Shown here in pieces: positions 2,788-42,728 of a DNA stretch of 64,000 bases (its first letter is position 1; the number at the start of each line of letters is the position of its first letter). The notes below the pieces were generated by a model. That model ran no database searches, was not told where the DNA came from, and saw only the letters and a list, made by a program, of their open reading frames with translations. Source of the DNA: Patescibacteria group bacterium (lineage in GTDB: Bacteria > Patescibacteriota > Patescibacteriia > Patescibacteriales > JAQTRU01); NCBI GenBank assembly GCA_041645555.1, contig JBAZPX010000001.1, positions 22,505-86,504 of the forward strand. The letters run 5' to 3'. A program made the translations under genes and the position numbers.

Positions 2788-4277
<1,490 letters not shown>

Positions 4278-8190: not shown

Positions 8191-11058
8191 ATGGCGATTA
8201 AGCAATCCACCTCTGCTAAAGCTACGGTGGACAAGAAAAACAAGAAGGCGAGAAAGCCCCACGCCTCCTCCTCCGTCAAGACTACGGAGGACAAGAAGGC
8301 TTTGCGGGGCAAGCACGAAAACAAGTTGCCTAAGCGGATAAAAAAAATAAAATCCGAAGGGTTGGTTAAGGCGGCAAAAAAAGTTGATAAGGAAACCCTT
8401 CGGCAAGCTTCCGCCGACGCTAAAGCTTTGGCGGACAAGCAGGGTGAAAAAGGAAAAGGGTTAAAAGAAGAAATAAAGAAGCCTGTTTCTGCCATGCCGG
8501 AGAAAGAAAGTAAAAAGGATAAAGAGCAGCCAGGCAAAGAAGTGGCCGAGGTAGCGGAGAAAGAAGGAGAGAAAACCATAAAATCCCAGGTCGTGGACGG
8601 CCGCAAAAAAACTGAATATGGCATGGTCATACCCCAGTCAATTGTGGGAGAAATGAGTACCTGCTATCTGGATTATGCCATGAGTGTAATTGTAAGCCGG
8701 GCTTTGCCCGATGTCCGAGACGGTTTAAAGCCGGTCCATCGGCGAATCCTTTATGCGATGTGGAGTATTGGGTTGAAAGCCGGGGCTAAATTTAGAAAGT
8801 CAGCGACCGTCGTCGGTGAAGTTTTAGGCAAATACCATCCGCATGGCGATTCTGCGGTTTACGAATCCATGGTTCGTATGGCTCAGGATTTTTCAATGCG
8901 GTATCAATTAGTCAGGGGACAGGGAAACTTTGGTTCTATGGATGGCGATGGTGCCGCGGCCATGCGTTATACCGAAGCTAAATTATCTTCAATCGCCGAA
9001 GAGCTTATTTTTGATATTGATAGAAATACTGTTGATTTTATTCCTAATTATGACGGGTCGCAAAAAGAACCAACCGTCCTGCCCGCAAAACTTCCTAATT
9101 TATTGTTAAACGGCGTAATGGGGATAGCGGTCGGTATGGCGACAAATATTCCTCCGCATAATTTAAAAGAATTGGTTGACGCCATAACTTATTTGATTGA
9201 CAAGCCGGCCGCCACCGTAGAAGATTTGATGCAGTTTGTTAAAGGGCCGGATTTTCCGACCGGCGGGATTATTTATAATAATAAAGATATTTTACAGGCC
9301 TATGCGACCGGCAAGGCCGGAATCGTTATGCGGGGCCGGGCCGAAATTACTGAAACTAAAGGTGGCAATTTCCATATTATCATTACGGAAATTCCTTATC
9401 AGGTGAATAAAGCCACTTTAGTGGAAAAAATCGCCGATTTAGTAAAAGACAAAAAGATTGAAGGCATAAAAGATCTGCGGGACGAATCGGATAAGGACGG
9501 CGTGAGAGTTGTGGTTGAGCTTAAAAAGGACGCTTATCCGAAGAAAATTTTAAACAGCTTATATAAGCATACTCAGCTGCAGGAAACTTTTCATGTCAAC
9601 ATGCTGGCTCTGGTAGACGGCATCCAGCCGAAGGTTTTAACTTTAAAAATGATTTTGGAAGAATATATCAAGCACCGGGAAGAAGTGGTAAGGCGCCGGA
9701 CCCAGTTTGATTTAGATCGGGCTCGCGCGCGCGCCCATATTTTAGAAGGCTTGATGATCGCTTTGAATAATATTGACGCGGTCATAAAAACGATTAAAGC
9801 TTCCCGCGACAAAGAAGTAGCCAAAGTGAGTTTAATGAAGAGGTTTAAACTTTCCGAACTGCAGGCCATTGCCATCCTAGAAATGAAATTGCAGAGTCTG
9901 GCTAATTTAGAGAGATTAAAAATAGAAGAAGAATTAAAAGAAAAGAGGAAACTTATAAAAGATTTAGAAGAAATTCTTAAATCCCAGGCAAAGATAAGAG
10001 GAATTATCAAAAATGAAATTAAAGATTTAGCGGATAAGTTCGGTGATGAGCGCAAAACTCAGATTGTGGCCCATGGCGTAAAAGATTTTAGCATAGAAGA
10101 TTTAGTGCCGAACGAGGAAACTATGGTTACGATGACCCGGGACGGCTATATAAAACGCCTGACCCCGGATACTTTTAAAGTCCAGGCGAGAGGCGGCAAG
10201 GGCGTAATCGGCTTAACGACCAAAGAAGAAGATACGGTTGAATTTATGTTTACCACCTTTACCCATAGCGACATTTTATTTTTCACTACCCGCGGAAGAG
10301 TGTTTCAGCTTAAAGCTCATGAAATTCCGCAGGCCTCCCGTACGGCCAAAGGCACGCCGGTTGTAAACTTTTTGCAGCTTTTGGGCGAGGAAAAAATAAC
10401 TTCGGTCCTGCCTTTGGATAAAATTTCTAACAGCAAGTTTTTATTCTTTGCGACGGAAAGAGGGTTAGTTAAGAAAGTAAAATTGGAAGCTTTTGCTAAT
10501 GTCCGCCGGTCGGGTTTAATTGCCATTAAGATAAAAGGGGAAGATAAATTAATCTGGGCCAAGCCAACCGGCGGCAATGACCATATCCAATTAATTACGG
10601 CCGGCGGGCAATCGGTGCGTTTTCAAGAATCCGATGTCCGCGATATGGGCCGCAATGCCGCTGGGGTGCGGGGGATCCGGCTCAAGAAAGATGATATTTT
10701 GATTGGTATGGGAATTATCAAGGGCGACAAAGAGAAGATGAAAAAATATCAGGTCTTAACCATAATGGAGCAGGGTTTTGGCAAACGGACAGCCTTAGGA
10801 TTTTATAAAGTTCAGGGCCGGGGCGGATCAGGAATTAAGACCGCCAAGGTGACAAGCAAGACCGGCAAGCTGGTTAACGCTTTTATAGTTAATACCGAAT
10901 CTATGGAAGAAAAAGATTTAATTGTGATTTCGGAGAAGGGGCAGGTGATAAGGCTGCCTTTCAAATCCGTTAACCAATTAGGCCGGGATACGCAAGGCGT
11001 AAGGCTGATGCGGTTTAAAGAGCAAAGTGATAAAGTGGCTTGCGTAACTTGGGTGTAA
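8191..11058 (+). CDS. gyrA: DNA gyrase subunit A with ~150-aa lysine-rich N-terminal extension
   Basis: Motifs [42 protein letters not shown] (catalytic Tyr) and C-terminal beta-pinwheel repeats. The conserved core begins near aa 155, so a downstream start (about 8650) cannot be excluded. Confidence 0.9.
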
Positions 11059-11138: not shown

Positions 11139-11681
11139 ATGAAAACAACGATGGTTATGTTGTTAGCGGCCATTTTTATGGTCTTGGGAGTTTTCCCCGC
11201 TTCTAGCGACGTAAGCATTATTGTTTGGGCCGATCTTTCAAAGATAAAAACTGTATCCGAAAATAGTGTTTATTCGGAGGAAGTTATTTTTGAAGACGGG
11301 AAAGCGGTTTGGCAAGGGTATGGCAAGTTCTATTTTGCCTTCTATAATGAGAAGGCTCTAAAAGATTTAGTCCAAGACGATTCAACCAAAGTTTTTCTCG
11401 CTCCTTACGGAGAGGGAGTTGTACCTTCTTTTGGTAATCTGTACATTGTTTTAAAGAATATTTTCGGGAGCGTCGGAACCGAGACTTACGGCCTTGAGGC
11501 CGAGACTTTTTACGTCTGGCCGGTTAAGTTTCCGGCCCCGTTAATTAGATTGAAAGATTCAGACGGAGCGGTTAGCTACAAAGGCATCGCGCCTTTCGGG
11601 GACGGCGCGATAGAAACAATGAAGGCAAGCGGCCGGCGGATAACGAAGAATTTCTTTGCGTCTTTAAAAATGCGGAAATAA
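11139..11681 (+). CDS. hypothetical secreted protein
   Basis: AAGGAGG RBS at 11126-11132, an N-terminal signal-like hydrophobic segment and a downstream terminator. Confidence 0.6.
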   Translation: MKTTMVMLLAAIFMVLGVFPASSDVSIIVWADLSKIKTVSENSVYSEEVIFEDGKAVWQGYGKFYFAFYNEKALKDLVQDDSTKVFLAPYGEGVVPSFGNLYIVLKNIFGSVGTETYGLEAETFYVWPVKFPAPLIRLKDSDGAVSYKGIAPFGDGAIETMKASGRRITKNFFASLKMRK

Positions 11682-13765: not shown

Positions 13766-14719
13766 ATGGAACCCAGAGAGATTAAAACTGAAAAAAATGC
13801 GGCGGAGGCAATTGTGGAGACAATTGCTTTTTTTGACTTATTCTCTTACCCCCTAACCGCTTTTGAGATTTGGAAATATATAAATATAAAATCCGAACTG
13901 GGCGAAGTTTTGGAAGTTTTAGAAAAACCCGCCTCTGTCCCGCTCGGCGGGACTACGGCGGGCAAGGACGGATTTTATTTTTTAGCTGGCCGGGCAGAGA
14001 TTATGAGGGAAAGAATGGCGAGATATAATTATACGGATAAAAAATTTAATCGGGCAATTTTACTCTCCAGAATTTTTAAATTTATTCCCTGGATAAAAAT
14101 GGTCGCGGTTGGGAATATCATCGGAGCGCATAACTTAAAAAAAGAAAGCGATATAGATCTGTTTATTATCACGGAGAAAAACCGGATTTGGCTAACCAGA
14201 TTTTTTTGCGTGCTAATAACAAAAACATTGGGGTTGCGTCCGAAACCCGAAGAAGCCAGGGATAAAATTTGCTTAAGTTTTTTTATTAGCGAGGAAGCGA
14301 TGAATTTAGAAAAGTTGATGCTGGCCGGCGGGCGAGATACATATTTTATTTATTGGCTGGCGGGGTTAGTACCGATTTATGACAAGGACGATATTTATAA
14401 TAAGTTTATAAAAGCCAACGTCTGGCTTAAAAATTATTTGCCTAATTGGATGGCCGGAGAAGTTAATTACCGGCGGGATGCCGGAAAAAGTTTTTCCCGG
14501 TTTTACCGCGATGTGGTTGATATGTTTTTCGGCGGGCTGGAAAGAAGAATTAAAGAAATTCAATTGGAAATAATGCCGAGACAAATAAAAGACATTATGA
14601 ATATGGACAGCCGGGTGGTGGTTGATGACAGAACAATAAAACTTCATGTTAATGACAGGAGAGAGGAATACGAAAATAAATTCAGAATTAAGAATAAAGA
14701 ATTAAGAATTAATTTATGA
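13766..14719 (+). CDS. hypothetical protein, possible Pol-beta-superfamily nucleotidyltransferase fold
   Basis: VGNIIGAHNLKKESDIDLFII resembles the G[GS]x9-13DhDh NTase motif. The 3' end carries a heptamer tract (agaatta/agaataa x4 at 14684-14711). Confidence 0.4.
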   Translation: MEPREIKTEKNAAEAIVETIAFFDLFSYPLTAFEIWKYINIKSELGEVLEVLEKPASVPLGGTTAGKDGFYFLAGRAEIMRERMARYNYTDKKFNRAILLSRIFKFIPWIKMVAVGNIIGAHNLKKESDIDLFIITEKNRIWLTRFFCVLITKTLGLRPKPEEARDKICLSFFISEEAMNLEKLMLAGGRDTYFIYWLAGLVPIYDKDDIYNKFIKANVWLKNYLPNWMAGEVNYRRDAGKSFSRFYRDVVDMFFGGLERRIKEIQLEIMPRQIKDIMNMDSRVVVDDRTIKLHVNDRREEYENKFRIKNKELRINL

Positions 14720-16119
14720 AAGTTGTAAGTAAAATCATAGAATATGGTCTGTATTTGTTGGTTTTTTTGCTGCCCTGGCAGACGCGCTGGATTATTAGGG
14801 CCGGGGAGACGGAATATACGACCTATAGTTTGTATGGAACAGATATAATTTTACTTATAGTTTTGTTATTGTTTGTTGTTCTGAAATGTCAAATGTCAAA
14901 TGTCAAATGTCAAACAAAATCCCAAATCCAAAATCCCAATTTTCAAATCAAAAAATTTTGGTACTTTGTGGGGTTGGTTGACTTATTTGTTTTTATTTCC
15001 ATATTTTTCGCGAATGATAAGTGGTTGGCTCTATATAAATACGGCTGGTTTTTGCTGGGAGTAGGGTTATTTTGGCTGATGACGAGCGCGAACTATAATA
15101 AGATAAAACTGATTTGGGCTTTGTTGGCGGGAATTTTTTTGCAGGCCGGTCTTGGTATCTGGCAATTTTTATCCCAATCAAGCTTTGCCAGTAAGTGGTT
15201 GGGAATGGCGCTCCATAATCCGGCTGAACTCGGTGTTTCGGTCGTGGAAACTTTTGGGAATAATGGAATAGGAGAAAGATGGCTTAGGACTTATGGGGGA
15301 CTGGATCATCCGAATATGCTGGGAGGAATTTTGGCGATAGGTGTTTTGCTTTTGATTGGATATCTGATCAAAAAATTTTCAATTTTCAATTTTCAATTTT
15401 CAAACAATTCTAAAATTTTCAATTTTCAAACAAATGCTAAATTATTGTATTATTTTATTATTTTATTATTTTTGTTAGCGTTGTTTTTTACTTTTTCCCG
15501 CGGAGCGTGGGCTGGGCTGTTGGCTGGAATATTTTTGTTATTATTTATATTTTTAATTAAAAAAGATTTTTTGAAGCAGAGGGAATTATTAAAGATAATT
15601 TTAGTCGGGGGAATTTTGATTTTTTTCTTGTTTAGCTTTTACGGCAATTTAGTTTTGACGCGCTTATCGCAAGACACTAGGCTGGAAATAAAATCAACCG
15701 AAGAAAGAATGGCGTCTTTTTCTGAAGCCAAGATTATTATAAAAGATAATTGGCTTTTTGGAACAGGAATCGGCAATTATACTTTAGCTTTGGAAAAAAA
15801 TAATCCCGGTCAAGAAAAATGGAATTATCAGCCGGTTCATAATGTGTTTATATTAGTCTGGGCGGAAGTGGGATTCTTGGGACTTTTAGGATTCTTGGGA
15901 CTTTTAGGATTCTTGGGATGGAGTTTGATGAGGAAGAAAAAATATTTTGGGTTGTCTATTCTTATCTCTTTAGTTATAATGATGATGGTTGACCATTGGT
16001 ATTGGAGTCTGCATTTCGGGATTTTATGGTTCTGGCTCTTGGCCGGACTGATGCTGACTAATACTGACCAAGGCGGACTCGGGCGGACTGACGCGGACTC
16101 TGGGCCTATTGCAAATTAA
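14716..16119 (+). CDS. O-antigen ligase / Wzy_C-family polytopic membrane protein
   Basis: Multiple TM segments and the FTFSRGAWAGLLAG Wzy_C-type loop motif. ATGA overlap with the upstream gene. Contains several in-frame simple-repeat tracts. Confidence 0.75.
   Translation: MKVVSKIIEYGLYLLVFLLPWQTRWIIRAGETEYTTYSLYGTDIILLIVLLLFVVLKCQMSNVKCQTKSQIQNPNFQIKKFWYFVGLVDLFVFISIFFANDKWLALYKYGWFLLGVGLFWLMTSANYNKIKLIWALLAGIFLQAGLGIWQFLSQSSFASKWLGMALHNPAELGVSVVETFGNNGIGERWLRTYGGLDHPNMLGGILAIGVLLLIGYLIKKFSIFNFQFSNNSKIFNFQTNAKLLYYFIILLFLLALFFTFSRGAWAGLLAGIFLLLFIFLIKKDFLKQRELLKIILVGGILIFFLFSFYGNLVLTRLSQDTRLEIKSTEERMASFSEAKIIIKDNWLFGTGIGNYTLALEKNNPGQEKWNYQPVHNVFILVWAEVGFLGLLGFLGLLGFLGWSLMRKKKYFGLSILISLVIMMMVDHWYWSLHFGILWFWLLAGLMLTNTDQGGLGRTDADSGPIAN
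14884..14950. repeat. heptamer tract (aaatgtc x4) followed by aaatccc/aaatcca words, inside the ligase ORF
   Basis: Read directly; encodes KCQMSNVKCQTKSQIQNPNFQ. Confidence 0.9.
15374..15430. repeat. heptamer tract (aattttc x4, then x2), inside the ligase ORF
   Basis: Read directly; encodes FSIFNFQFSNNSKIFNFQ. Confidence 0.9.
15871..15918. repeat. 18-nt tandem repeat ggattcttgggactttta x2.7 (GFLGLL x3)
   Basis: Read directly. The word gggattcttggga recurs at 21343-21355, with the variant gggattcttagga at 43746-43758. Confidence 0.9.
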
Positions 16120-16144: not shown

Positions 16145-16439
16145 ATCGCACCTTATAGTGAGCCAGTCGGAGAGAAAACAAGAGTGATTCCCTTATGAAG
16201 CATCGGCGAGCGTCTTTAGCATCGCCTAAAAGCCGTGATGCGATCTCGGTCTTCTAATACGAGAAAATGGGGAACAGCCCAAACCAGTTAATATTCTGGG
16301 GTCGTAGGGTCCTTGGCTTTAGAGTTAAAAGTCGGGAGTGATCCCGGCCTCTACAGGGAGACCCTGAGTAGGAGACTTCGGTCTCTGAATTTGCCACGTT
16401 AAAGTGGTAAGGCTAAACGAGACTGGCTCTCTTGTTTTT
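16145..16439 (+). ncRNA. candidate structured non-coding RNA, class not recognised
   Basis: Lies in a 640-nt gene-free gap. TTGCAA-N15-TATAAT at 16109-16135. Closing helix 16160-16168 / 16421-16429. GUGA-capped hairpin 16331-16348, UUCG-capped hairpin 16371-16386 and hairpin 16394-16407. A terminator follows directly. The tetraloops only make sense on the plus strand. Confidence 0.45.
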
Positions 16440-16470
16440 GAGGCGTTCTGCTTGCGGAACGCCTCTTTTA
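16440..16470 (+). terminator. intrinsic terminator after the ncRNA candidate
   Basis: gaggcgttc / gaacgcctc stem followed by TTTTA. Confidence 0.55.
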
Positions 16471-18219: not shown

Positions 18220-21200
18220 ATGGAACAGAATTTAATGGAAAATTTAAATAAGGAGCAACTGAAAGCCGTCCTTCACAAGGATGGTCCTTTGTTAATCGTG
18301 GCCGGAGCCGGCACAGGAAAAACCACGGTTATTACCCAGAGAATCGCCTATATTATTGAGCAAGGCTGGGCGAAATCAGATGAGATTTTAGCTTTAACTT
18401 TTACGGAAAAAGCGGCCGGAGAAATGGAAGAGCGGGTTGATAGATTATTGCCTATGGGCTATCTAGATTTATGGATTTCCACTTTTCATGGTTTTGGTGA
18501 GAGGATTTTAAAAGAGCACGGCTTAGACATCGGGCTGCCTAATGATTCCAAATTGCTTAATGAATTTGAACAATATTCTTTAGTGAAAAAAAATCTGGAT
18601 AAATTTGATTTGGATTATTACCGGCCGATGGGCAATCCGACAAAATTTATCCATGCTTTGATAAAACATTTTTCCCGGGCTAAAGACGAAGACATTAGCC
18701 CGGCGCAGTATTTGGAGTATGCCCAAGAACTTAAGGAAAATTTGGATGGAATGTTAAGTGGGAATAAAAAAGTCATCACCGCCAAGGCGGGACAGGAAAG
18801 TCAAAAGTCAAAAGTCAAAAGTCTTTCAAATAAGGATGATGTTGATAAAGAAATAGCGGCACAGGAAGTGGCACGGATAAACGAAGTGGCGAATGCTTAT
18901 CATATTTATCAGCAATTACTGCTGGATAGCAATGCTTTAGATTTTGGAGATTTAATAAATTATTGCTTAAAATTATTCCGCGACCGGCCGGCGATTTTAG
19001 AAAAATACCGGAAGCAATTTAAATATATTTTACTGGATGAATTTCAGGATACTAACTGGGCGCAGTATGAACTCATAAAAATGCTGGCTAGCCCGAAAAA
19101 TAATTTGGTGGTCGTTGGCGACGATGACCAGTCAATTTATAAATTCCGCGGAGCTTCGGTTTCCAATATTTTGCAGTTTAAAAAAGATTATCCGCAGGCC
19201 GAGCAGATTTTTTTGGTAAATAATTACCGCAATAAACAAAATATTCTGGATTTATCTTATAAATTCATAAAGCAGAATGACCCGAACAGATTAGAATACC
19301 AATTACAAAAAAGTCAAAAGTCAAAAGTCACCCGCCTACCGGCGAGGCAGGAAAGTCAAAAGTTGAATAAGGAGTTAATAGCTGACAATAAGGGAGAGGG
19401 AGTGATAGAGGTTATAGAAGGAAAGAATTTGACCGAAGAAATAAAGGCAGTAATTGAAAAAATTGCGGATTTAAAAATTAAAGATAAAAATTCTACCTGG
19501 GACGATTTTGCAATTTTAGTCCGGGCGAATGAAAGCGCTAAAGAAATTTGTTCCTTTTTAGCCGCGGCCCAACTGCCTTATCAGTTTCTATCTTCCCGCG
19601 GCCTCTATACCAAGCCGGTAATAATGGACTTAATTGCTTATTTAAAATTACTGGACGATTATCACGAAAGCATAGCCGCTTACCGCGTTTTAAATCTGCC
19701 GATTTTTAATTTTACTTACCATGAGTTGGTCAATTTTAATTATTGGGCCAGTAAAAAAGCCTGGTCGCTTTATGAAATTCTGCGCAATGTTTCCGTCTTA
19801 AATTTAGGCGCGGAAGTCCAAAAAAAAGCCGAGGCGGTTTTGGCTTTAATCGCCAAGCACACGGGCTTAACGCGGGAGAAAAATGTCAGTGAAGTTATTT
19901 TAGCTTTTCTTAATGACAGCGGTTATTTAAAATATTTATTAGCGCAGGACGAGCAAAAAAGCCGGGAGACGGCCGGCTACCTTAACCAGTTTATGAAAAG
20001 AGTGGGAGAATTTGAAAAAGGCAGTGATGATAAAAGCGTTAAGGCTTTTTTAGACCAACTGCAGATGGAAATTGACGCCGGGGAAGAGGGAACCATGCCG
20101 GTTGACTGGGAGGCCGGCCCGGAAACGATTAAAGTAATGACAGTCCATGGAGCCAAGGGCTTGGAATTTAAGTATGTTTTTATTGCCGGTTTAGTGGACA
20201 AGCGTTTCCCGACGATTGAAAGAAGCGAACAAATTGAAATTCCGGACGCCCTAGTTAAAGAAATTTTGCCGGAAGGCGATATTCATTTGGAAGAAGAGAG
20301 GCGATTGTTTTATGTGGCTATGACTCGGGCGAAAAATGATCTGTATTTTTCCTGGGCGTCGGATTATGGCGGAGCCCGGCTTAAAAAACCTTCCCGTTTT
20401 TTAACAGAATGTGGGCTTATAAAAGAAAGCCCCACTACGCCAAAGCGCAATATTCCCGACGAAGATATTTTAAGAAATAAACCGATTATGGCCAGAGATA
20501 AAACTATTAACTTCTCCGTGCCGTCGTATTTTTCTTATACCCAGCTAGCGGCTTTTTCAAATTGTCCTTACCAATACCGCTTTGCCCATATTTTAAGGGT
20601 TCCGGTCAGAGGTAAGCACGTCTTTTCTTTCGGCAAAACCCTGCATATTACTTTGCAGAAATTATTCAGTTTAATTGAAGAAAAAAAGAAACGCAAACAG
20701 ACGGATTTGTTCGGCGCTTCGGCAAACTCAGCCCAGGCAGATAAAAAAGATGTTAAGATTAGTTTGGAAGAAATTTTAAAACTATATGAGCAATCCTGGA
20801 TTAATGACTGGTATGAGAATAAAGCGCGGAAAGAGGAATATAAAAAGAAAGGCAAGGAAATTTTAAGACAGTTTTATGAAAAAAATAAAAATGACTGGCC
20901 GAATGCTATTTTCCTGGAAAAGGGTTTTAACACTAAAGTTAAAGTTGGCAATGAATTGTATACGGTGCGCGGGGTAATGGACAGGATTGATGAGACAAAC
21001 GGCCACCGCCAAGGCGGGGCAGGGAAAATAAAGATTATTGACTATAAAACCGGAAACCCGAAGGATAAACTGGTTTTTGAAGAAAAGTATCAGTTATTAA
21101 TTTATCAGCTGGCGGCGCAAGAACTTTTCCGCCAGGAAATTGATTCTTTAACTTTTTATTATTTAGATAATAACACCGAAGTTAAATTTTTAGGCAGCCA

Positions 21201-21336
21201 GGATGAGCTGGAAAAAACAAAAGAAAAAATTATCAATACGATTGCCGAAATAAAAAAAGGCGAATTCCCTCCCAAGCCGTCGGCGCTTTGTAAATTTTGC
21301 GACTTTTTCGATATCTGCGAATTTAGGAAGAGTTAA
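18220..21336 (+). CDS. UvrD/PcrA-type superfamily 1 helicase fused to a C-terminal PD-(D/E)xK, Cys-cluster (Cas4/AddB-like) nuclease
   Basis: Walker A AGAGTGKT, DEFQDTN and helicase motifs through VHGAKGLEF. The C-terminus has FSNCPYQYRF, RIDE...IIDYKTG and CKFCDFFDIC. Confidence 0.85.
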   Translation: MEQNLMENLNKEQLKAVLHKDGPLLIVAGAGTGKTTVITQRIAYIIEQGWAKSDEILALTFTEKAAGEMEERVDRLLPMGYLDLWISTFHGFGERILKEHGLDIGLPNDSKLLNEFEQYSLVKKNLDKFDLDYYRPMGNPTKFIHALIKHFSRAKDEDISPAQYLEYAQELKENLDGMLSGNKKVITAKAGQESQKSKVKSLSNKDDVDKEIAAQEVARINEVANAYHIYQQLLLDSNALDFGDLINYCLKLFRDRPAILEKYRKQFKYILLDEFQDTNWAQYELIKMLASPKNNLVVVGDDDQSIYKFRGASVSNILQFKKDYPQAEQIFLVNNYRNKQNILDLSYKFIKQNDPNRLEYQLQKSQKSKVTRLPARQESQKLNKELIADNKGEGVIEVIEGKNLTEEIKAVIEKIADLKIKDKNSTWDDFAILVRANESAKEICSFLAAAQLPYQFLSSRGLYTKPVIMDLIAYLKLLDDYHESIAAYRVLNLPIFNFTYHELVNFNYWASKKAWSLYEILRNVSVLNLGAEVQKKAEAVLALIAKHTGLTREKNVSEVILAFLNDSGYLKYLLAQDEQKSRETAGYLNQFMKRVGEFEKGSDDKSVKAFLDQLQMEIDAGEEGTMPVDWEAGPETIKVMTVHGAKGLEFKYVFIAGLVDKRFPTIERSEQIEIPDALVKEILPEGDIHLEEERRLFYVAMTRAKNDLYFSWASDYGGARLKKPSRFLTECGLIKESPTTPKRNIPDEDILRNKPIMARDKTINFSVPSYFSYTQLAAFSNCPYQYRFAHILRVPVRGKHVFSFGKTLHITLQKLFSLIEEKKKRKQTDLFGASANSAQADKKDVKISLEEILKLYEQSWINDWYENKARKEEYKKKGKEILRQFYEKNKNDWPNAIFLEKGFNTKVKVGNELYTVRGVMDRIDETNGHRQGGAGKIKIIDYKTGNPKDKLVFEEKYQLLIYQLAAQELFRQEIDSLTFYYLDNNTEVKFLGSQDELEKTKEKIINTIAEIKKGEFPPKPSALCKFCDFFDICEFRKS

Positions 21337-23467: not shown

Positions 23468-24628
23468 ATGAGGTTAAAAGATTTTGACTACAATTTACCA
23501 AAAAATTTAATTGCCCAAAAACCTATCAAACCGCGAGACCATTCGCGGCTTTTATTACTTTCTAGAAAAACAGGCAAGATAAATCATAAACATTTTTATG
23601 ATATTTTAGATTATTTAAAGCCGGGCGATGTTTTAGTTTTAAACAATTCTAAAGTAATGCCGGCCCGGTTGCTTGGCGAAAAGAAAGAAACCGGGGGAAA
23701 AATTGAAGTTTTTTTACTAAGGAAAAAAATCCCTCCGCCTACGCCAAGGCTTCGGCGGACAAGCCCAACCCCCCTTTTGAAAGAGGGTAATATTTGGCAA
23801 TGCCTTTTGGGCGGTAAAAGGAGAAGAGAGGGGCTAGAAATTAAATTTAGCCAAGGTTTAGAGTGCCGGGTTATTAAAGATAATAAAGATGGTACGTGGG
23901 AAATAAAATTCAGTAAAGGCGGAAAAAAATTTATGAAGGTGGTGGAAAAAATCGGATTAACGCCTTTGCCGCCTTATATAAAGAGGGCCGCCGGACGTCC
24001 GGCTGACAACAAAGATTATCAGACGGTTTATGCCGATGATAAAAAAATTGGTTCCGTAGCCGCTCCGACAGCCGGTTTTCATTTTACCGATGTCTTATTA
24101 AAGAAACTTAAGAAGAAAGGCGTATTATTAGAATATGTTACTTTGCATGTCGGTTTGGGGACATTCGCGCCGGTTAAAGTTGATGATATAAAGAAGCACA
24201 AGATGCATGCGGAATGGGTGGAAGCGGATAAAAAAACCATCGCTGATATTTGTTTAGCTAAATCCGAAGGCAGAAGAATAATAGCGGTTGGGACAACGAG
24301 CGCAAGGACGCTAGAGAGCATTTTTCAAAAATTTCCGAATTCCAGAATTTCCGAATTTCCGAATAAAAATCTGAAATCTGAAATCCCTGCCTTGCCGGCA
24401 GGCAGGTTAGATCTTAAATTAAATGGCTGGACGGATATTTTTATTTATCCCGGCTATAAATTCAAAGCCGTTGATGCTTTAATTACTAATTTCCATCTGC
24501 CGAAATCCACTCTTCTAATGCTGGTTTCGGCTTTGGCCGGAAAGAAAAATATTGACAAGGCTTATAGGCAGGCGATAAAAAAGGAATACCGGTTTTATAG
24601 CTATGGGGATGCGATGTTTATTTATTAA
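23468..24628 (+). CDS. queA: S-adenosylmethionine:tRNA ribosyltransferase-isomerase QueA, carrying two repeat-derived in-frame insertions
   Basis: DFDYNLPKNLIAQKP, PRDHSRLL, APTAGFHFT, GTTSARTLES, GWTDIFIYPGYKFK and ITNFHLPKSTLLMLV. Confidence 0.9.
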   Translation: MRLKDFDYNLPKNLIAQKPIKPRDHSRLLLLSRKTGKINHKHFYDILDYLKPGDVLVLNNSKVMPARLLGEKKETGGKIEVFLLRKKIPPPTPRLRRTSPTPLLKEGNIWQCLLGGKRRREGLEIKFSQGLECRVIKDNKDGTWEIKFSKGGKKFMKVVEKIGLTPLPPYIKRAAGRPADNKDYQTVYADDKKIGSVAAPTAGFHFTDVLLKKLKKKGVLLEYVTLHVGLGTFAPVKVDDIKKHKMHAEWVEADKKTIADICLAKSEGRRIIAVGTTSARTLESIFQKFPNSRISEFPNKNLKSEIPALPAGRLDLKLNGWTDIFIYPGYKFKAVDALITNFHLPKSTLLMLVSALAGKKNIDKAYRQAIKKEYRFYSYGDAMFIY

Positions 24629-29045: not shown

Positions 29046-29154
29046 TTTTGTTTGCCATTTGGCTTTTATTTATGTTATAATAATATTAAATAACAAAACT
29101 GTGGAATAGTCAATCTAAAGATGAAATACTAAATTTAAAACAAAGCCTAAAAAA

Positions 29155-29289
29155 TTCCTAATTCACCTAATTTCTAATTCCTAATAAAATGTCAAATGCT
29201 AAATTTTAAAAAATATTTTTATAATTTGGCATTTTGGCATTAAGAATTTTAAATTTTATTAGTAATTAGGTGAATTAGAAATTAGAAAT
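29155..29289. repeat. large imperfect palindrome built from heptamer-like words in the divergent intergenic region
   Basis: ctaattcacctaat...ctaataaaatgtcaaatgctaaatt on one arm against aatttggcattttggcatt...attaggtgaattag on the other. Confidence 0.75.
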
Positions 29290-29297
29290 TTTAAAAA

Positions 29298-41911: not shown

Positions 41912-42553
41912 ATGTTTGACGATTTAAATCAAAAAACTAATAAAATTGAGGATATTTTTTCCGAAACGGAAAAAGGGGGAAAACCCAATATCCTAAAGCC
42001 GGCCGGGTCAACTCCTGTCCCGCCGCCAATCCCTGGAGCCGGGATAAGAGAAGGGGGAGAGGGGAAGAAAGAAGGGGTGAAAAAAATCCTTATTTTTGCT
42101 ATACTGATCGTAGCAGTAGTCTTAATTATTTTTGGTATTTTCTGGGTTTTAAAAAAGATTGATACGACTTTAAATACGGGGACGGGAGAGCAAGCGCAGG
42201 AAGAAAATTTAACAGGAGCGGGAGTCCCTAATATCCCGGCAGAAAACCAAGCCCCGGAGCCAGCACCGACAGAACCGCCTTCTCCGGCTGAAAGTATGTT
42301 TTTCCCGCCGAGCATAGCCGGGCCGATTGACAGCGACCAGGACGGTTTGACGGACGAAGAAGAGGTAACCCTTGGGACTGATATTAATAATACTGACACT
42401 GACAGCGACGGCTTATTTGACCGAGAAGAGGTAAGGGTTTATAAAACTAACCCCTTGGTTGCCGATACGGATGGAGACGGCTATTCGGACGGAGATGAAG
42501 TTAAGAATGGCTATAATCCGGCCGGTCCGGGCAAGCTGTACGAAATACAATAA
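41912..42553 (+). CDS. single-pass membrane protein with Pro-rich spacer and TSP3-like repeats
   Basis: TM segment ILIFAILIVAVVLIIFGIFWVL. The C-terminus is DSDQDGLTDEEE...DTDSDGLFDREE...DTDGDGYSDGDEVKNGYNPAGPGKLYEIQ. Confidence 0.7.
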   Translation: MFDDLNQKTNKIEDIFSETEKGGKPNILKPAGSTPVPPPIPGAGIREGGEGKKEGVKKILIFAILIVAVVLIIFGIFWVLKKIDTTLNTGTGEQAQEENLTGAGVPNIPAENQAPEPAPTEPPSPAESMFFPPSIAGPIDSDQDGLTDEEEVTLGTDINNTDTDSDGLFDREEVRVYKTNPLVADTDGDGYSDGDEVKNGYNPAGPGKLYEIQ

Positions 42554-42556
42554 AGT

Positions 42557-42646
42557 CTACGAATTACAAATCAGTACGAATTTACGAATACGGTATAAAA
42601 CGTTTTAATAAGAATTCGTAAATTCGTAAAAAATTCGTAATTCGTA
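42557..42646. repeat. ~35-bp-arm palindrome built from 'tacgaat' heptamer words, terminator-like
   Basis: ctacgaattacaaatcagtacgaatttacgaat pairs against attcgtaaattcgtaaaaaattcgtaattcgtag. Confidence 0.85.
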
Positions 42647-42728
42647 GGGAATTAATATCCACAACCGTACTAGCTTGAAAATTAATTAAAACTATAATAT
42701 TTCTTAAGTCGTGTAACTTATAAAAAAT

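Follow-up and report, generated by a model that had tools for sequence, protein, structure and literature searches.

Is a membrane-enzyme gene studded with heptanucleotide repeats a phase-variation switch, or simply a place where repeat DNA that occurs throughout the genome happens to be tolerated? The question is raised by a single ORF in a 64,000-nucleotide stretch of DNA from a Patescibacteria group bacterium (this whole stretch is referred to below as the window), for which an initial annotation had proposed a contingency locus, while allowing that the tracts might instead reflect a genome-wide repeat phenomenon landing in loop regions. Direct inspection of the sequence and TRF recovered every listed tract inside one membrane-protein ORF, 14716–16119 (Table 1). 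As we will argue, the second explanation is the better one: with a probability of roughly 60%, a genome-wide repeat phenomenon has been sinking into permissive loops, and the tracts are repeat DNA that the gene tolerates and translates while selection maintains the frame.

On the basis of profile and structure predictions, the host gene encodes a Wzy_C protein with a WaaL fold. Its product matches Pfam PF04932 over residues 248–394 (E 2e-20; 73.4 bits against a curated cut-off of 31.7), and the AlphaFold2 model (pLDDT 82.5, pTM 0.85), which contains 12 TM helices, has WaaL (7TPG_B) as its best PDB match (E 1.8e-7, TM-score 0.52/0.58). Low-confidence segments of the model lie at residues 72–74, 222–230, and 453–467, with pLDDT below 50 at 222–230 and 453–467. 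A long loop spans residues 309–376, where an alignment of 70 sequences shows no variation at R316, E324, E330, and R331 and almost none at R322 and H375; the loop therefore corresponds to the periplasmic loop of the WaaL family (family described in PMC10920833). The predicted structure accordingly shows the family features of 12 TM helices and a long extracytoplasmic loop with conserved Arg and His, and the protein is a putative ligase or polymerase of an undecaprenyl-PP-linked glycan. No glycan gene cluster was found among the neighboring genes, which are syntenic housekeeping genes rather than part of a glycan island. No exact match to the protein was found in public assemblies, the sole near-identical relative of the window being P0001/L001. 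No Rfam family was assigned to a structured region at 16157–16470.

Table 1. Coordinates of the host gene, its repeat tracts, and related repeats elsewhere in the window.
Feature	Coordinates	Strand	Context
Wzy_C-family (WaaL-fold) polytopic membrane glycosyltransferase gene (predicted)	14716..16119	+	467 aa; single ORF hosting all tracts of the initial annotation
AATTAAG-type heptamer array	14679..14712	+	TRF: 4.9 copies, 88% matches; directly 5' of the Wzy start codon
(AAATGTC)x4.4, exact	14884..14914	+	Loop 1: cytoplasmic end of TM2 and TM2–TM3 linker
AAATCCC / AAATCCA / AATTTTC words	14917..14950	+	Degenerate second array of loop 1
AATTTTC module: (AATTTTC)x4.3, AAACAATTCTAA, (AATTTTC)x2, AAACAAATGC	15370..15439	+	Cytoplasmic TM6–TM7 linker (loop 2)
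ATTATTTT x4, period 8, T-rich	15441..15472	+	Encodes first half of TM7 (LLYYFIILLFLL)
Exact 18-nt unit x2.7 (GFLGLL x3)	15871..15918	+	Inside TM10
GGCGGACTCG-type 10-nt repeat (GCGGACT x3 at 16073, 16083, 16093)	16072..16105	+	Lineage-specific cytoplasmic C-terminal tail
(AAAGTCA)x3.9 adjoining GC hairpin	18797..18823	+	Variable linker of UvrD/AddA-like helicase gene (18220–21336)
(AAAAGTC)x3.1, GC hairpin CCCGCCTACCGGCGAGGCAGG, AAAGTCA again	19309..19360	+	Second variable linker of UvrD/AddA-like helicase
TTCCGAA-type and AAATCTG heptamer arrays, then GC hairpin CCTGCCTTGCCGGCAGGCAGG	24333..24406	+	Inside QueA gene (23468–24628)
Palindrome, arms of heptamer-word arrays (AATTCCT / AATTAGA; inner arms AAATGTC-AAATGCT)	29153..29290	.	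Intergenic
Palindrome of TACGAAT / ATTCGTA arrays	42557..42647	.	Intergenic, 3' of ORF 41912–42553

The tracts differ in unit, regularity, and apparent coding role. The loop-1 AAATGTC array is read through all three frames in turn, giving KCQMSNVKCQ. In the degenerate array that follows it, TRF calls a period-7 repeat at 14917–14939 (3.3 copies, 87% matches), and in L009, L018, L007, L035, and L132 the TGG TGG with which TM3 begins follows AAAATCC/AAAATAC arrays orthologous to 14917–14950. The loop-2 module holds exact AATTTTC units at 15374–15403, with the two further units at approximately 15417–15430 after AAACAATTCTAA, and encodes KKFSIFNFQFSNNSKIFNFQTNAK; at the adjacent ATTATTTT site, relatives carry the T-rich heptamers TACTTTT, ATACTTT, and TACTTCT. 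The C-terminal tail (48–51 nt) is absent from L004 and L132. Its GCGGACT word is not enriched overall (7 matches in the window against 3.8 expected, a count reached by 8 of 100 shuffles), only the triple at 10-nt spacing being unusual; GGCGGAC, in turn, is enriched (12 versus 4.4, reached by 0 of 100 shuffles). The AATTAAG-type array just upstream encodes the C-terminal tail of the preceding ORF (13766–14719), and at the equivalent position L002/L003 have AAAATGC heptamers around a GC hairpin. We note in passing that this array and the ATTATTTT repeat were absent from the initial annotation. A search for inverted repeats in the window's Wzy arrays found none at 14860–14980 (loop 1) and only weak ones at 15350–15480; in-frame palindromes of the kind known from Rickettsia are rejected as a description of these arrays, loop 1 having no inverted repeats.

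Chance is excluded for the period-7 class. Counting exact tandems with 2.5 copies or more, the window has 8 of period 7 where dinucleotide shuffles have 0.07; there are none of period 6 or period 9, and a single 18-mer, against 0 in shuffles. Across a comparison set of approximately 140 related Falkowbacteria-type loci (1.19 Mb), we counted 116 tracts of period 7, 5 of period 6, 12 of period 8, and 3 of periods 9–12, with the 677 kb from closer relatives contributing 103 of the period-7 tracts and the 515 kb from more distant ones the other 13. At least 60 different heptamer units are represented, and the commonest, AATTTTC, accounts for 13 of the 116 tracts. The period-7 excess is a genome-wide and clade-wide phenomenon, and the suggestion that such repeats land in loops agrees with the location of the tracts in cytoplasmic linkers. 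Their distribution is far from even: array density in the approximately 140 loci is 0.60/kb for the Wzy gene, 0.19/kb between genes, and 0.03/kb for the remaining ORFs, an excess for the Wzy gene of about 20-fold over those ORFs and of 3-fold over intergenic DNA. As a control we considered nine ORFs with at least 6 TM helices (10.4 kb), which, after removal of one apparent truncated Wzy copy, amount to approximately 9 kb with 1 tract, too small a sample to test permissiveness as the sole cause.

The same class of repeat occurs elsewhere in the window (Table 1), and the report of like word tracts in housekeeping genes holds for the linkers of a UvrD/AddA-like helicase and for QueA. Heptamer-coded peptides occupy equivalent variable linkers in four orthologues of the helicase. 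Likewise, inverted-repeat analysis bore out the existence of intergenic palindromes built from heptamer words, both examples in Table 1 included; that at 29153–29290 has 51-nt arms that are 75% complementary.

Where the arrays fall within the Wzy protein is strikingly restricted. Tracts cluster at query residues 55–76, 225–251, 396–406, and 454–455, and across the approximately 140 loci arrays always occur at these four shared sites, mixed with GC-rich hairpins and MITE-like palindromes. A topology prediction had been suggested to see whether the tracts lie in loops, and the 12-TM AlphaFold2 model indeed places those of the window in cytoplasmic linkers, in the tail, or at cytoplasm-proximal helix ends. 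The tract-bearing linkers are assigned to the cytoplasm because they are net positive and have no acidic residues. Antigenic variation of exposed loops is rejected, all array sites being cytoplasmic according to the AlphaFold2 topology, the WaaL fold, and the linker charge.

Judging from the reading frame, the arrays are translated as part of the Wzy ORF, and they bear the marks of a frame filter. On the coding strand, 53 of 63 Wzy-gene units contain no stop in any frame, versus 11 of 63 on the opposite strand; for intergenic units the corresponding figures on the two strands are 8/25 and 14/25. Array lengths in the Wzy gene are concentrated at 29–33 nt (44 arrays), with a further 17 at 21–28 nt and none reaching 40 nt; the peak agrees with a seed to which 3 units (21 nt) have been added. 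Of the 25 intergenic tracts, only 2 have 4.1–4.7 units. The heptamer arrays of the window have 4.3–4.4 units, and the maximum among the approximately 140 loci is 5.6.

Comparisons between strains bear directly on whether the arrays switch. The initial annotation had named invariance of repeat number, across deep coverage and across related genomes, as what would refute a contingency locus, and among close relatives such invariance is seen. We found no heptamer copy-number change between the window and the near-identical L001 assembly, and none in the close pairs compared (86–99.9% identity) apart from L032/L035 (86% identity), in which whole loop segments differ; L002 and L003, at 4% divergence, have 55 substitutions and 0 indels across four arrays. 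The invariance does not extend to distant relatives, which differ by 3 units (21 nt). The AAATGTC array is identical in the window, L001, and L004 (78% aa identity), L132 and L084 have 1.4 copies, and a clean indel of exactly 21 nt at this array separates L004 from L132. The 18-mer is the only tract that varies between strains: L001/P0001 lacks exactly one 18-nt unit (window 15871–15888) in a gene that is otherwise identical. Array DNA is also better conserved than the rest of the Wzy gene, with approximately 61 nt of loop 1 identical between the window and L004, whose genes share 79% identity overall. Loop content is also replaced wholesale between Wzy genes that are 92–95% identical. Copying of modules between the loops of one gene is seen too: a 57-nt module, of which the window's loop-2 AATTTTC module is a variant, occurs twice in one Wzy gene in L002, L003, and L026, as copies that are 96–100% identical.

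Two natural alleles, in L041 and L050, are broken within their loop-1 arrays while the remainder of each gene is intact; addition of one AATTTCC unit restores a full-length ORF in L041 (532 aa), and removal of one TTAATTC unit does so in L050 (555 aa). These make up the Wzy genes broken at arrays, 2 among approximately 140 loci, each of the two strains being represented by its broken allele, and 0 of 118 full-length protein clusters look split. The broken genes of L076 (at approximately aa 308) and L134 (at approximately aa 115, a 1-nt indel on a 1.2-kb contig) were left out of this count, as their breaks lie outside arrays.

To account for these patterns, we propose that a Falkowbacteria-like subclade of the Patescibacteria carries a lineage-specific load of micro-repeats, comprising short heptanucleotide arrays of many different units, often accompanied by GC-rich hairpins and small palindromes. 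Four cytoplasmic segments of the Wzy protein (the TM2–TM3 linker, the TM6–TM7 linker, the TM10–TM11 turn, and the C-terminal tail) would be almost unconstrained, and repeat DNA may accumulate and turn over there, with arrays also forming the adjoining helix ends. New arrays would arise through replication slippage or template switching and through short-range copying of ready-made modules between loops, and would presumably be neutral once in place. Transcription and translation would turn them into low-complexity linker peptide, with K/N/Q/S-rich linkers from A-rich units and hydrophobic helix ends from T-rich ones, and purifying selection on the reading frame would filter the survivors, leaving units without a stop in any of the three frames and arrays built of a seed and three further units (21 nt). 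Slips of one unit would inactivate the Wzy gene, but rarely, and the tracts would therefore be a by-product that is tolerated, an incipient switch at best rather than a device tuned for phase variation. The 18-mer is probably an ordinary in-frame length polymorphism of TM10.

Some observations run counter to such a sink. Arrays are denser in the Wzy gene (0.60/kb, rising to 0.91/kb within the heptamer-rich clade) than between genes, which a purely neutral sink does not obviously predict. The strong conservation of array DNA between divergent genes points to lateral exchange, or to a role at the DNA level for which the sink has no place. Growth by single-unit slippage to 4.x units within an ORF needs null intermediates, and would be easier if the OFF state were tolerated; L041 and L050 are otherwise intact null alleles of the kind required.

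The contingency locus originally proposed would work by a one-unit slip in the loop-1 or loop-2 array that shifts the frame and turns the enzyme OFF, with a second slip restoring it, so that an episymbiotic bacterium could vary a surface glycan reversibly; selection for switchability would then concentrate arrays in the Wzy gene. That concentration over other ORFs and intergenic DNA is observed, and dozens of lineages repeat it at the same sites; unit length is not divisible by three, the units lie inside the ORF, the first array is near the 5' end of a glycan-enzyme gene, the L041 and L050 alleles are each one unit from a full-length ORF, and units that are stop-free in all frames would tolerate local frame changes. 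We nevertheless consider a dedicated switch unlikely, given that arrays reach at most 5.6 units where the Haemophilus influenzae hmw1A switch has 13–24 (PMC8262952), that copy number is invariant in L001 and the close pairs, L002/L003 among them, that array DNA is better conserved than the remaining gene, and that broken arrays and split proteins are so rare. In addition, the array sites collect hairpins and palindromes that are unable to act as switches, like arrays occur in the helicase and QueA genes, and the Wzy gene is syntenic with housekeeping genes outside any glycan island. The repeats might alternatively be the footprints of very small mobile elements, whereby GC-rich hairpins or 57-nt AATTTTC modules insert in A/T-rich targets and duplicate approximately 7 nt, tandem heptamers are left behind by cycles of insertion and excision or by hopping over short distances, and the Wzy loops are where insertions survive. 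In 9 genomes the Wzy gene carries the 57-nt module, placed at loop 1, at loop 2, or at site 3, and the site differs in genomes whose Wzy genes are 48–77% identical to the window's. Hairpins lie inside arrays with one heptamer on both flanks in the window (19309–19360 and 18779–18823) and in L012, L005, L035, L002/3, L047, and L085, and hairpin segments are present or absent, or replaced, between near-identical sequences (gyrA 8396–8461 versus L001, L084 versus L132, and L114 versus L120). In a GC-island test for target-site duplications that is noisy in its generic form and suggestive only when restricted to hairpins, 18 of 152 hairpin-type islands have a word of 7 nt or more common to their flanks, against a mean of 6.7 and a maximum of 14 in 300 permutations. 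These signs are offset by the fact that no transposase or other mobilizing gene is linked to the hairpin or module elements, that no filled/empty site pair with n versus n+1 units was found, and that insertion into an existing array explains the flanking repeats equally well; the window's own Wzy arrays have no hairpin, and 14 of 15 AATTTTC module copies lie in one gene, which is odd for free transposition. A scan of viral contigs gave no match to the module. We regard an origin from mobile elements as quite improbable.

The arrays might also be selected for a function of their own, whether in the mRNA, as translational pausing after TM2, TM6, and TM10 that aids membrane insertion or as sites for a heptamer-reading single-strand-binding protein, or as positively charged cytoplasmic linkers. 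Recurrence immediately after particular TM helices, conservation of array DNA above that of the flanking gene, and K-rich linkers that obey the positive-inside rule all speak in favor of such a role, as does the reported binding of heptamer repeats by cold-shock proteins (reviewed in PMC4679880). Units and peptides are nonetheless wholly different between lineages, and the array sites accept unrelated GC-rich inserts. Moreover, the paired module copies are 476 or 1021 nt apart and are thus read in different frames, by which peptide-level selection for the 57-nt module is rejected. A selected function strikes us as very improbable. A combination of ideas is also conceivable, if doubtful: a frame-robust hypermutable system of an uncultivated episymbiont, in which slips switch the glycan enzyme OFF and a net 3 units restore it, its arrays seeded by undescribed GC-hairpin micro-elements that duplicate approximately 7 nt. 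If this is true, the Candidate Phyla Radiation would have its first described contingency-type mechanism as well as its first described invasion of coding regions by micro-repeats.

Returning to the preferred reading of tolerated repeat DNA in permissive loops, several consequences follow. Annotators should be cautious, as non-triplet repeats in a surface-polysaccharide gene resemble a contingency locus but here behave as translated filler. A load of heptanucleotide repeats and hairpins specific to one Patescibacteria clade is now documented, and repeat DNA can apparently supply the coding sequence of linkers and even of some transmembrane-helix segments, so that membrane proteins encoded by very small genomes could change quickly in length. 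Together with the two one-unit-out alleles, the 21-nt quantization also offers a handle on slippage rates in unculturable organisms.

Among known systems, the closest precedent for translated repeats is the Rickettsia palindromic elements (RPE), reportedly found by Ogata et al. 2000 as repeats in frame within ORFs. The Wzy arrays resemble RPE in being short repeated DNA, translated in frame as part of conserved proteins wherever the structure permits an insertion. The window's arrays are, however, direct tandem repeats of approximately 30 nt that share no common consensus, and the likeness extends to palindromic structure only in relatives: elements of approximately 100 nt lie in frame in the Wzy loops of L025, L120, and L041, and in-frame palindromic repeats, absent from the window's Wzy arrays, are present in L050 as well. 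The small dispersed repeats (SDR) of Nostoc punctiforme, said by Elhai et al. 2008 (Genome Res 18:1484; cited in PMC3116915) to be hairpin-forming sequences of 20–30 nt that behave as mobile DNA, reportedly share their genome with abundant heptamer tandem repeats. In the present, unrelated organisms the association of hairpins with arrays is seen directly, and mobility is putative.

The LOS genes of Haemophilus, with their tetranucleotide tracts, are simple-sequence contingency loci of the kind known from host-adapted bacteria. With such loci the Wzy gene shares a non-triplet unit, a surface glycan or protein gene, and a one-unit slip that would change expression; two natural alleles are one unit out of frame. 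Unlike them, it shows no copy-number polymorphism among close relatives, its arrays lie in cytoplasmic linkers and employ many different units, and like arrays are found in housekeeping genes. The H. influenzae genes hmw1A and hmw2A offer a closer match in period, carrying an (ATCTTTC)n heptanucleotide tract (PMC8262952), although the arrays here have 3–5.6 units against 13–24 in hmw1A.

A general excess of heptamers was described by Mrazek et al. 2007, as summarized in PMC4679880 and PMC4692102. Lineage-specific heptanucleotide long SSRs include the STRR of heterocystous cyanobacteria, TAACTGA of marine Beggiatoaceae, and GGGAATC of Xanthomonas. A targeted full-text literature search found no report of a heptanucleotide-repeat or hairpin load in Patescibacteria. 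The repeats described here share with these SSRs the period of 7, restriction to a lineage, inverted pairs that form intergenic hairpins, turnover of length and sequence between relatives while position is kept, and a proposed generator in polymerase slippage with a 7-nt register. Those SSRs are mainly intergenic and usually comprise one or a few units per genome, whereas dozens of AT-rich units occur here; TAACTGA is untranslatable in forward orientation, whereas the present arrays are apparently translated in all three frames; and the densest sites here lie inside an ORF, quantized by 21 nt.

All of the repeat tracts listed by the initial annotation are present in the window, inside a single ORF encoding a 467-aa product with a Pfam Wzy_C match of 73 bits, and we add two further arrays to that list (see table). 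Counting exact repeats of at least 2.5 copies, we find 8 period-7 tandems in the 64-kb window as against 0.07 in dinucleotide shuffles, so that the tracts are not a product of chance; no exact tandems of this copy number occur in the window at period 6 or at periods 9-17. The excess extends to related loci: across 1.19 Mb of sequence surrounding the orthologue in 81 genomes and in the window, a count of exact tandems with 2.7 or more copies gives 116 at period 7, 5 at period 6, 12 at period 8, and 3 at periods 9-12. Closer relatives hold 103 of the 116 in 677 kb, and more distant ones 13 in 515 kb. Units are diverse (the most frequent, AATTTTC, makes up 13 of 116), and copy number reaches at most 5.3. 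The genome-wide repeat phenomenon that the initial annotation had raised as an alternative finds support here. Heptanucleotide-repeat excess is known from other bacteria (Mrazek 2007, as summarised in PMC4679880 and PMC4692102); targeted full-text literature searching found no report of one in Patescibacteria, and the homologues of this protein are annotated as Patescibacteria or Falkowbacteria.

Coordinates of repeat arrays, modules, hairpins, and neighbouring features in the window and in related loci (L numbers) carrying the orthologous Wzy_C gene
Feature	Locus	Position	Remarks
Wzy_C ORF	window	14716-16119	+ strand
AATTAAG-type array	window	14679-14712	directly 5' of Wzy_C start codon; added here
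(AAATGTC)x4.4	window	14884-14914	Wzy_C ORF, loop 1
AAATCCC/AAATCCA words	window	up to 14950	Wzy_C ORF
(AATTTTC)x4.3	window	15374-15403	Wzy_C ORF; two more units near 15417-15430
ATTATTTT x4	window	15441-15472	Wzy_C ORF; added here
Exact 18-mer x2.7	window	15871-15918	Wzy_C ORF, TM10
GCGGACT	window	16073, 16083, 16093	Wzy_C ORF, C-terminal tail
Paired 57-nt modules	L002	5509-5565, 5985-6041	
Paired 57-nt modules	L003	3185-3241, 3661-3717	
Paired 57-nt modules	L026	8982-9038, 10003-10059	
MITE-like palindrome	L025	3683-3796	loop 1
Insert of ~100 codons	L050	~11210-11520	site 3
UvrD/AddA-like helicase-nuclease	window	18220-21336	
UvrD/AddA-like helicase-nuclease	L004	8859-12059	
UvrD/AddA-like helicase-nuclease	L020	5190-8375	
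UvrD/AddA-like helicase-nuclease	L028	5619-8795	
gyrA ORF	window	8191-11058	replaced segment 8396-8461
Hairpin-family copy	window	23735-23765	inside QueA
Hairpin-family copy	L012	271-295	Wzy loop 1
Hairpin-family copy	L002	5303-5333	immediately 5' of Wzy start
Hairpin-family copy	L003	2979-3009	immediately 5' of Wzy start
GC-richer segment	window	~16157-16470	between Wzy_C and M16 peptidase genes
16S rRNA gene, complete	window	2789-4277	- strand

An AlphaFold2 model of the Wzy_C protein (70 homologues; pLDDT 82.5, pTM 0.85) has 12 transmembrane helices; of the solved structures, the O-antigen ligase WaaL matches it best (7TPG_B, E 1.8e-7). The long loop 309-376, counterpart of the WaaL periplasmic loop (PMC10920833), contains invariant R316, E324, E330, and R331 and near-invariant R322 and H375. 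Counting helices from this loop, and relying on the model, homology, and the positive-inside rule, we infer that the TM2-3 linker (57-80; loop 1), the TM6-7 linker (222-236; loop 2), the TM10-11 turn (407-409; site 3), and the C-terminal tail are cytoplasmic; all four carry net positive charge and no acidic residues. The heptamer-coded peptides (KCQMSNVKCQ... and KKFSIFNFQFSNN...) form cytoplasmic linkers in this topology, as the suggestion that the tracts fall in loops had anticipated (the 18-mer lies instead in TM10), and model confidence is lowest in these linkers. The tail encoded by GCGGACT words is lineage-specific, L004 and L132 being without it.

Arrays are densest in the Wzy_C gene (0.60/kb, versus 0.19/kb in intergenic DNA and 0.029/kb in other ORFs; controls from other polytopic membrane proteins are too few to be informative), where they occur only at query residues 55-76, 225-251, 396-406, and 454-455, corresponding to the four cytoplasmic segments. 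The array at these sites differs in nearly every lineage, and many lineages also have GC-rich hairpins or ~100-nt palindromes there, all in frame. The half of TM7 adjoining an array is coded in relatives by T-rich heptamers or octamers; in the window, as in L018, L020, L035, L014, and L008, T-rich period 7/8 tandems (units ATTATTTT, TACTTTT, ATACTTT) encode its first half, so that part of a membrane helix is built by non-triplet repeats.

Nine genomes have a 57-nt module, (AATTTTC)4-AAACAATTTTCAATTnnnnAATTTTCAAA, at loop 1, loop 2, or site 3, and in three of them it occurs twice within one Wzy_C gene (copies 96-100% identical). Start-to-start spacings of 476 or 1021 nt place the paired copies in different reading frames, so the modules are copied as DNA and are not under selection as peptide; the pairs indicate intragenic copying of DNA modules. 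Loop content is replaced wholesale between genes 92-95% identical overall (L084/L132, L114/L120). A ~100-nt MITE-like palindrome (gtcattgcgagcg...cgctcgcaatgac) is translated in frame in loop 1 of L025, L120, L028, and L095; L114 lacks it, although the L114 and L120 genes are 95% identical. L050 has an in-frame insert at the TM10-11 turn besides a break in loop 1.

Housekeeping genes carry arrays too, as initially noted. Two genes downstream of Wzy_C lies a UvrD/AddA-like helicase; four orthologues of it, the window's among them, have heptamer-coded peptides in the same variable linkers (~aa 190, 365, and 750), which separate helicase blocks that are highly conserved. QueA contains heptamer arrays and a GC hairpin. 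In gyrA, 66 nt with a GC-rich hairpin (CTTCCGCCGACGCTAAAGCTTTGGCGGACAAGC) stand in place of 18 nt in L001, an otherwise identical contig; this +48-nt, in-frame replacement in the N-terminal tail of GyrA makes the hairpin insert a strain-level polymorphism in an essential gene. Related copies of a hairpin family, CCGCC(T/G)ACGC(T/C)AA(A/G)GCTT(C/T)GGCGG(A/G)CAAGC, usually have heptamer flanks.

In the window as a whole, the + strand carries nearly all of the long ORFs, and besides the 16S gene no 23S or 5S rRNA gene was detected anywhere in the 64 kb. The 640-nt gap following Wzy_C holds a GC-richer segment with a closing stem GAGCCAGTC/GACTGGCTC, an MFE of -121 kcal/mol (z -4.3), and a terminator hairpin at its end; Rfam has no family that matches this segment even at E<=1. 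It is missing from L002, where the flanking genes abut, and is a candidate unclassified structured RNA.

The best-supported account of the arrays, to which we give a probability of roughly 0.6, is that the Wzy_C segments act as a permissive sink. Heptamer arrays and hairpins, a load particular to this lineage, would arise by slippage and short-range module copying, build up where the sequence of a conserved protein is unconstrained, and be translated there. Selection would keep the frame, accounting for stop-free units and 21-nt quantisation, and one-unit slips would now and then inactivate the gene. Units stop-free in all three frames number 53 of 63 on the Wzy_C coding strand and 11 of 63 on the opposite strand (for intergenic units the two strands give 8 and 14 of 25). 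Within the gene, arrays show a bimodal length distribution (29-33 nt, n=44; 21-28 nt, n=17; >=40 nt, n=0), fitting a seed of 1.3-1.7 units plus three units (21 nt); of 25 intergenic arrays, only 2 fall in the range of 4.1-4.7 units. One such three-unit step can be observed directly: AAATGTC numbers 4.4 units in L004, whose array the window shares, versus 1.4 in L132/L084, exactly 21 nt apart.

The initial annotation had proposed a contingency locus, and a genuine phase-variation role appears unlikely. It draws support from the array density, which exceeds even that of intergenic DNA, and from the null intermediates that a stepwise route to 4.x units requires: in 2 of ~140 non-redundant loci (L041, L050) the gene is split exactly in the loop-1 arrays, and adding one AATTTCC unit (L041) or removing one TTAATTC unit (L050) restores the full-length ORF, the remaining gene being intact. 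No split genes are apparent among 118 full-length protein clusters of homologues. Against such a role, the suggested strain comparison showed unchanged unit numbers. L001, the one near-clonal comparison for the window's strain, has two substitutions in 21.4 kb beside the replaced gyrA segment and identical heptamer arrays throughout, the only structural differences being that segment and one 18-nt unit (in frame, GFLGLL). No heptamer copy-number change was seen among close pairs at 87-99.9% identity; L002 and L003 differ by 55 substitutions and 0 indels over four arrays, and among pairs above 85% identity repeat-region indels are confined to L032/L035 (86%), in which entire segments of the loops differ. 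The window and L004, whose genes are 79% identical, share ~61 nt of loop 1 without a difference, so conservation is higher, not lower, in the arrays than in the rest of the gene. The longest Wzy_C arrays have 5.6 units, versus 13-24 in the documented H. influenzae hmw1A switch (PMC8262952), and the helicase and QueA arrays also speak against this role. Quite improbable, in our assessment, is that the GC hairpins are micro-mobile elements that either generate heptamers on insertion or insert at existing ones: they often lie within arrays with the same heptamer on both flanks, and in 18 of 152 hairpin-type GC islands the two flanks have a word of 7 nt or more in common (6.7 expected), but no filled/empty site pair was found among the loci compared.

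The Wzy_C gene departs from SSR contingency loci in at least two of four testable respects, tract length and unit-number polymorphism among close strains. Its arrays resemble STRR, TAACTGA, and GGGAATC in working as other lineage-specific heptanucleotide repeats do, but here there are many units and density is highest inside an ORF. Rickettsia palindromic elements are translated in frame at permissive sites, a property that the present arrays share; unlike those elements, the window Wzy_C arrays are not palindromes.
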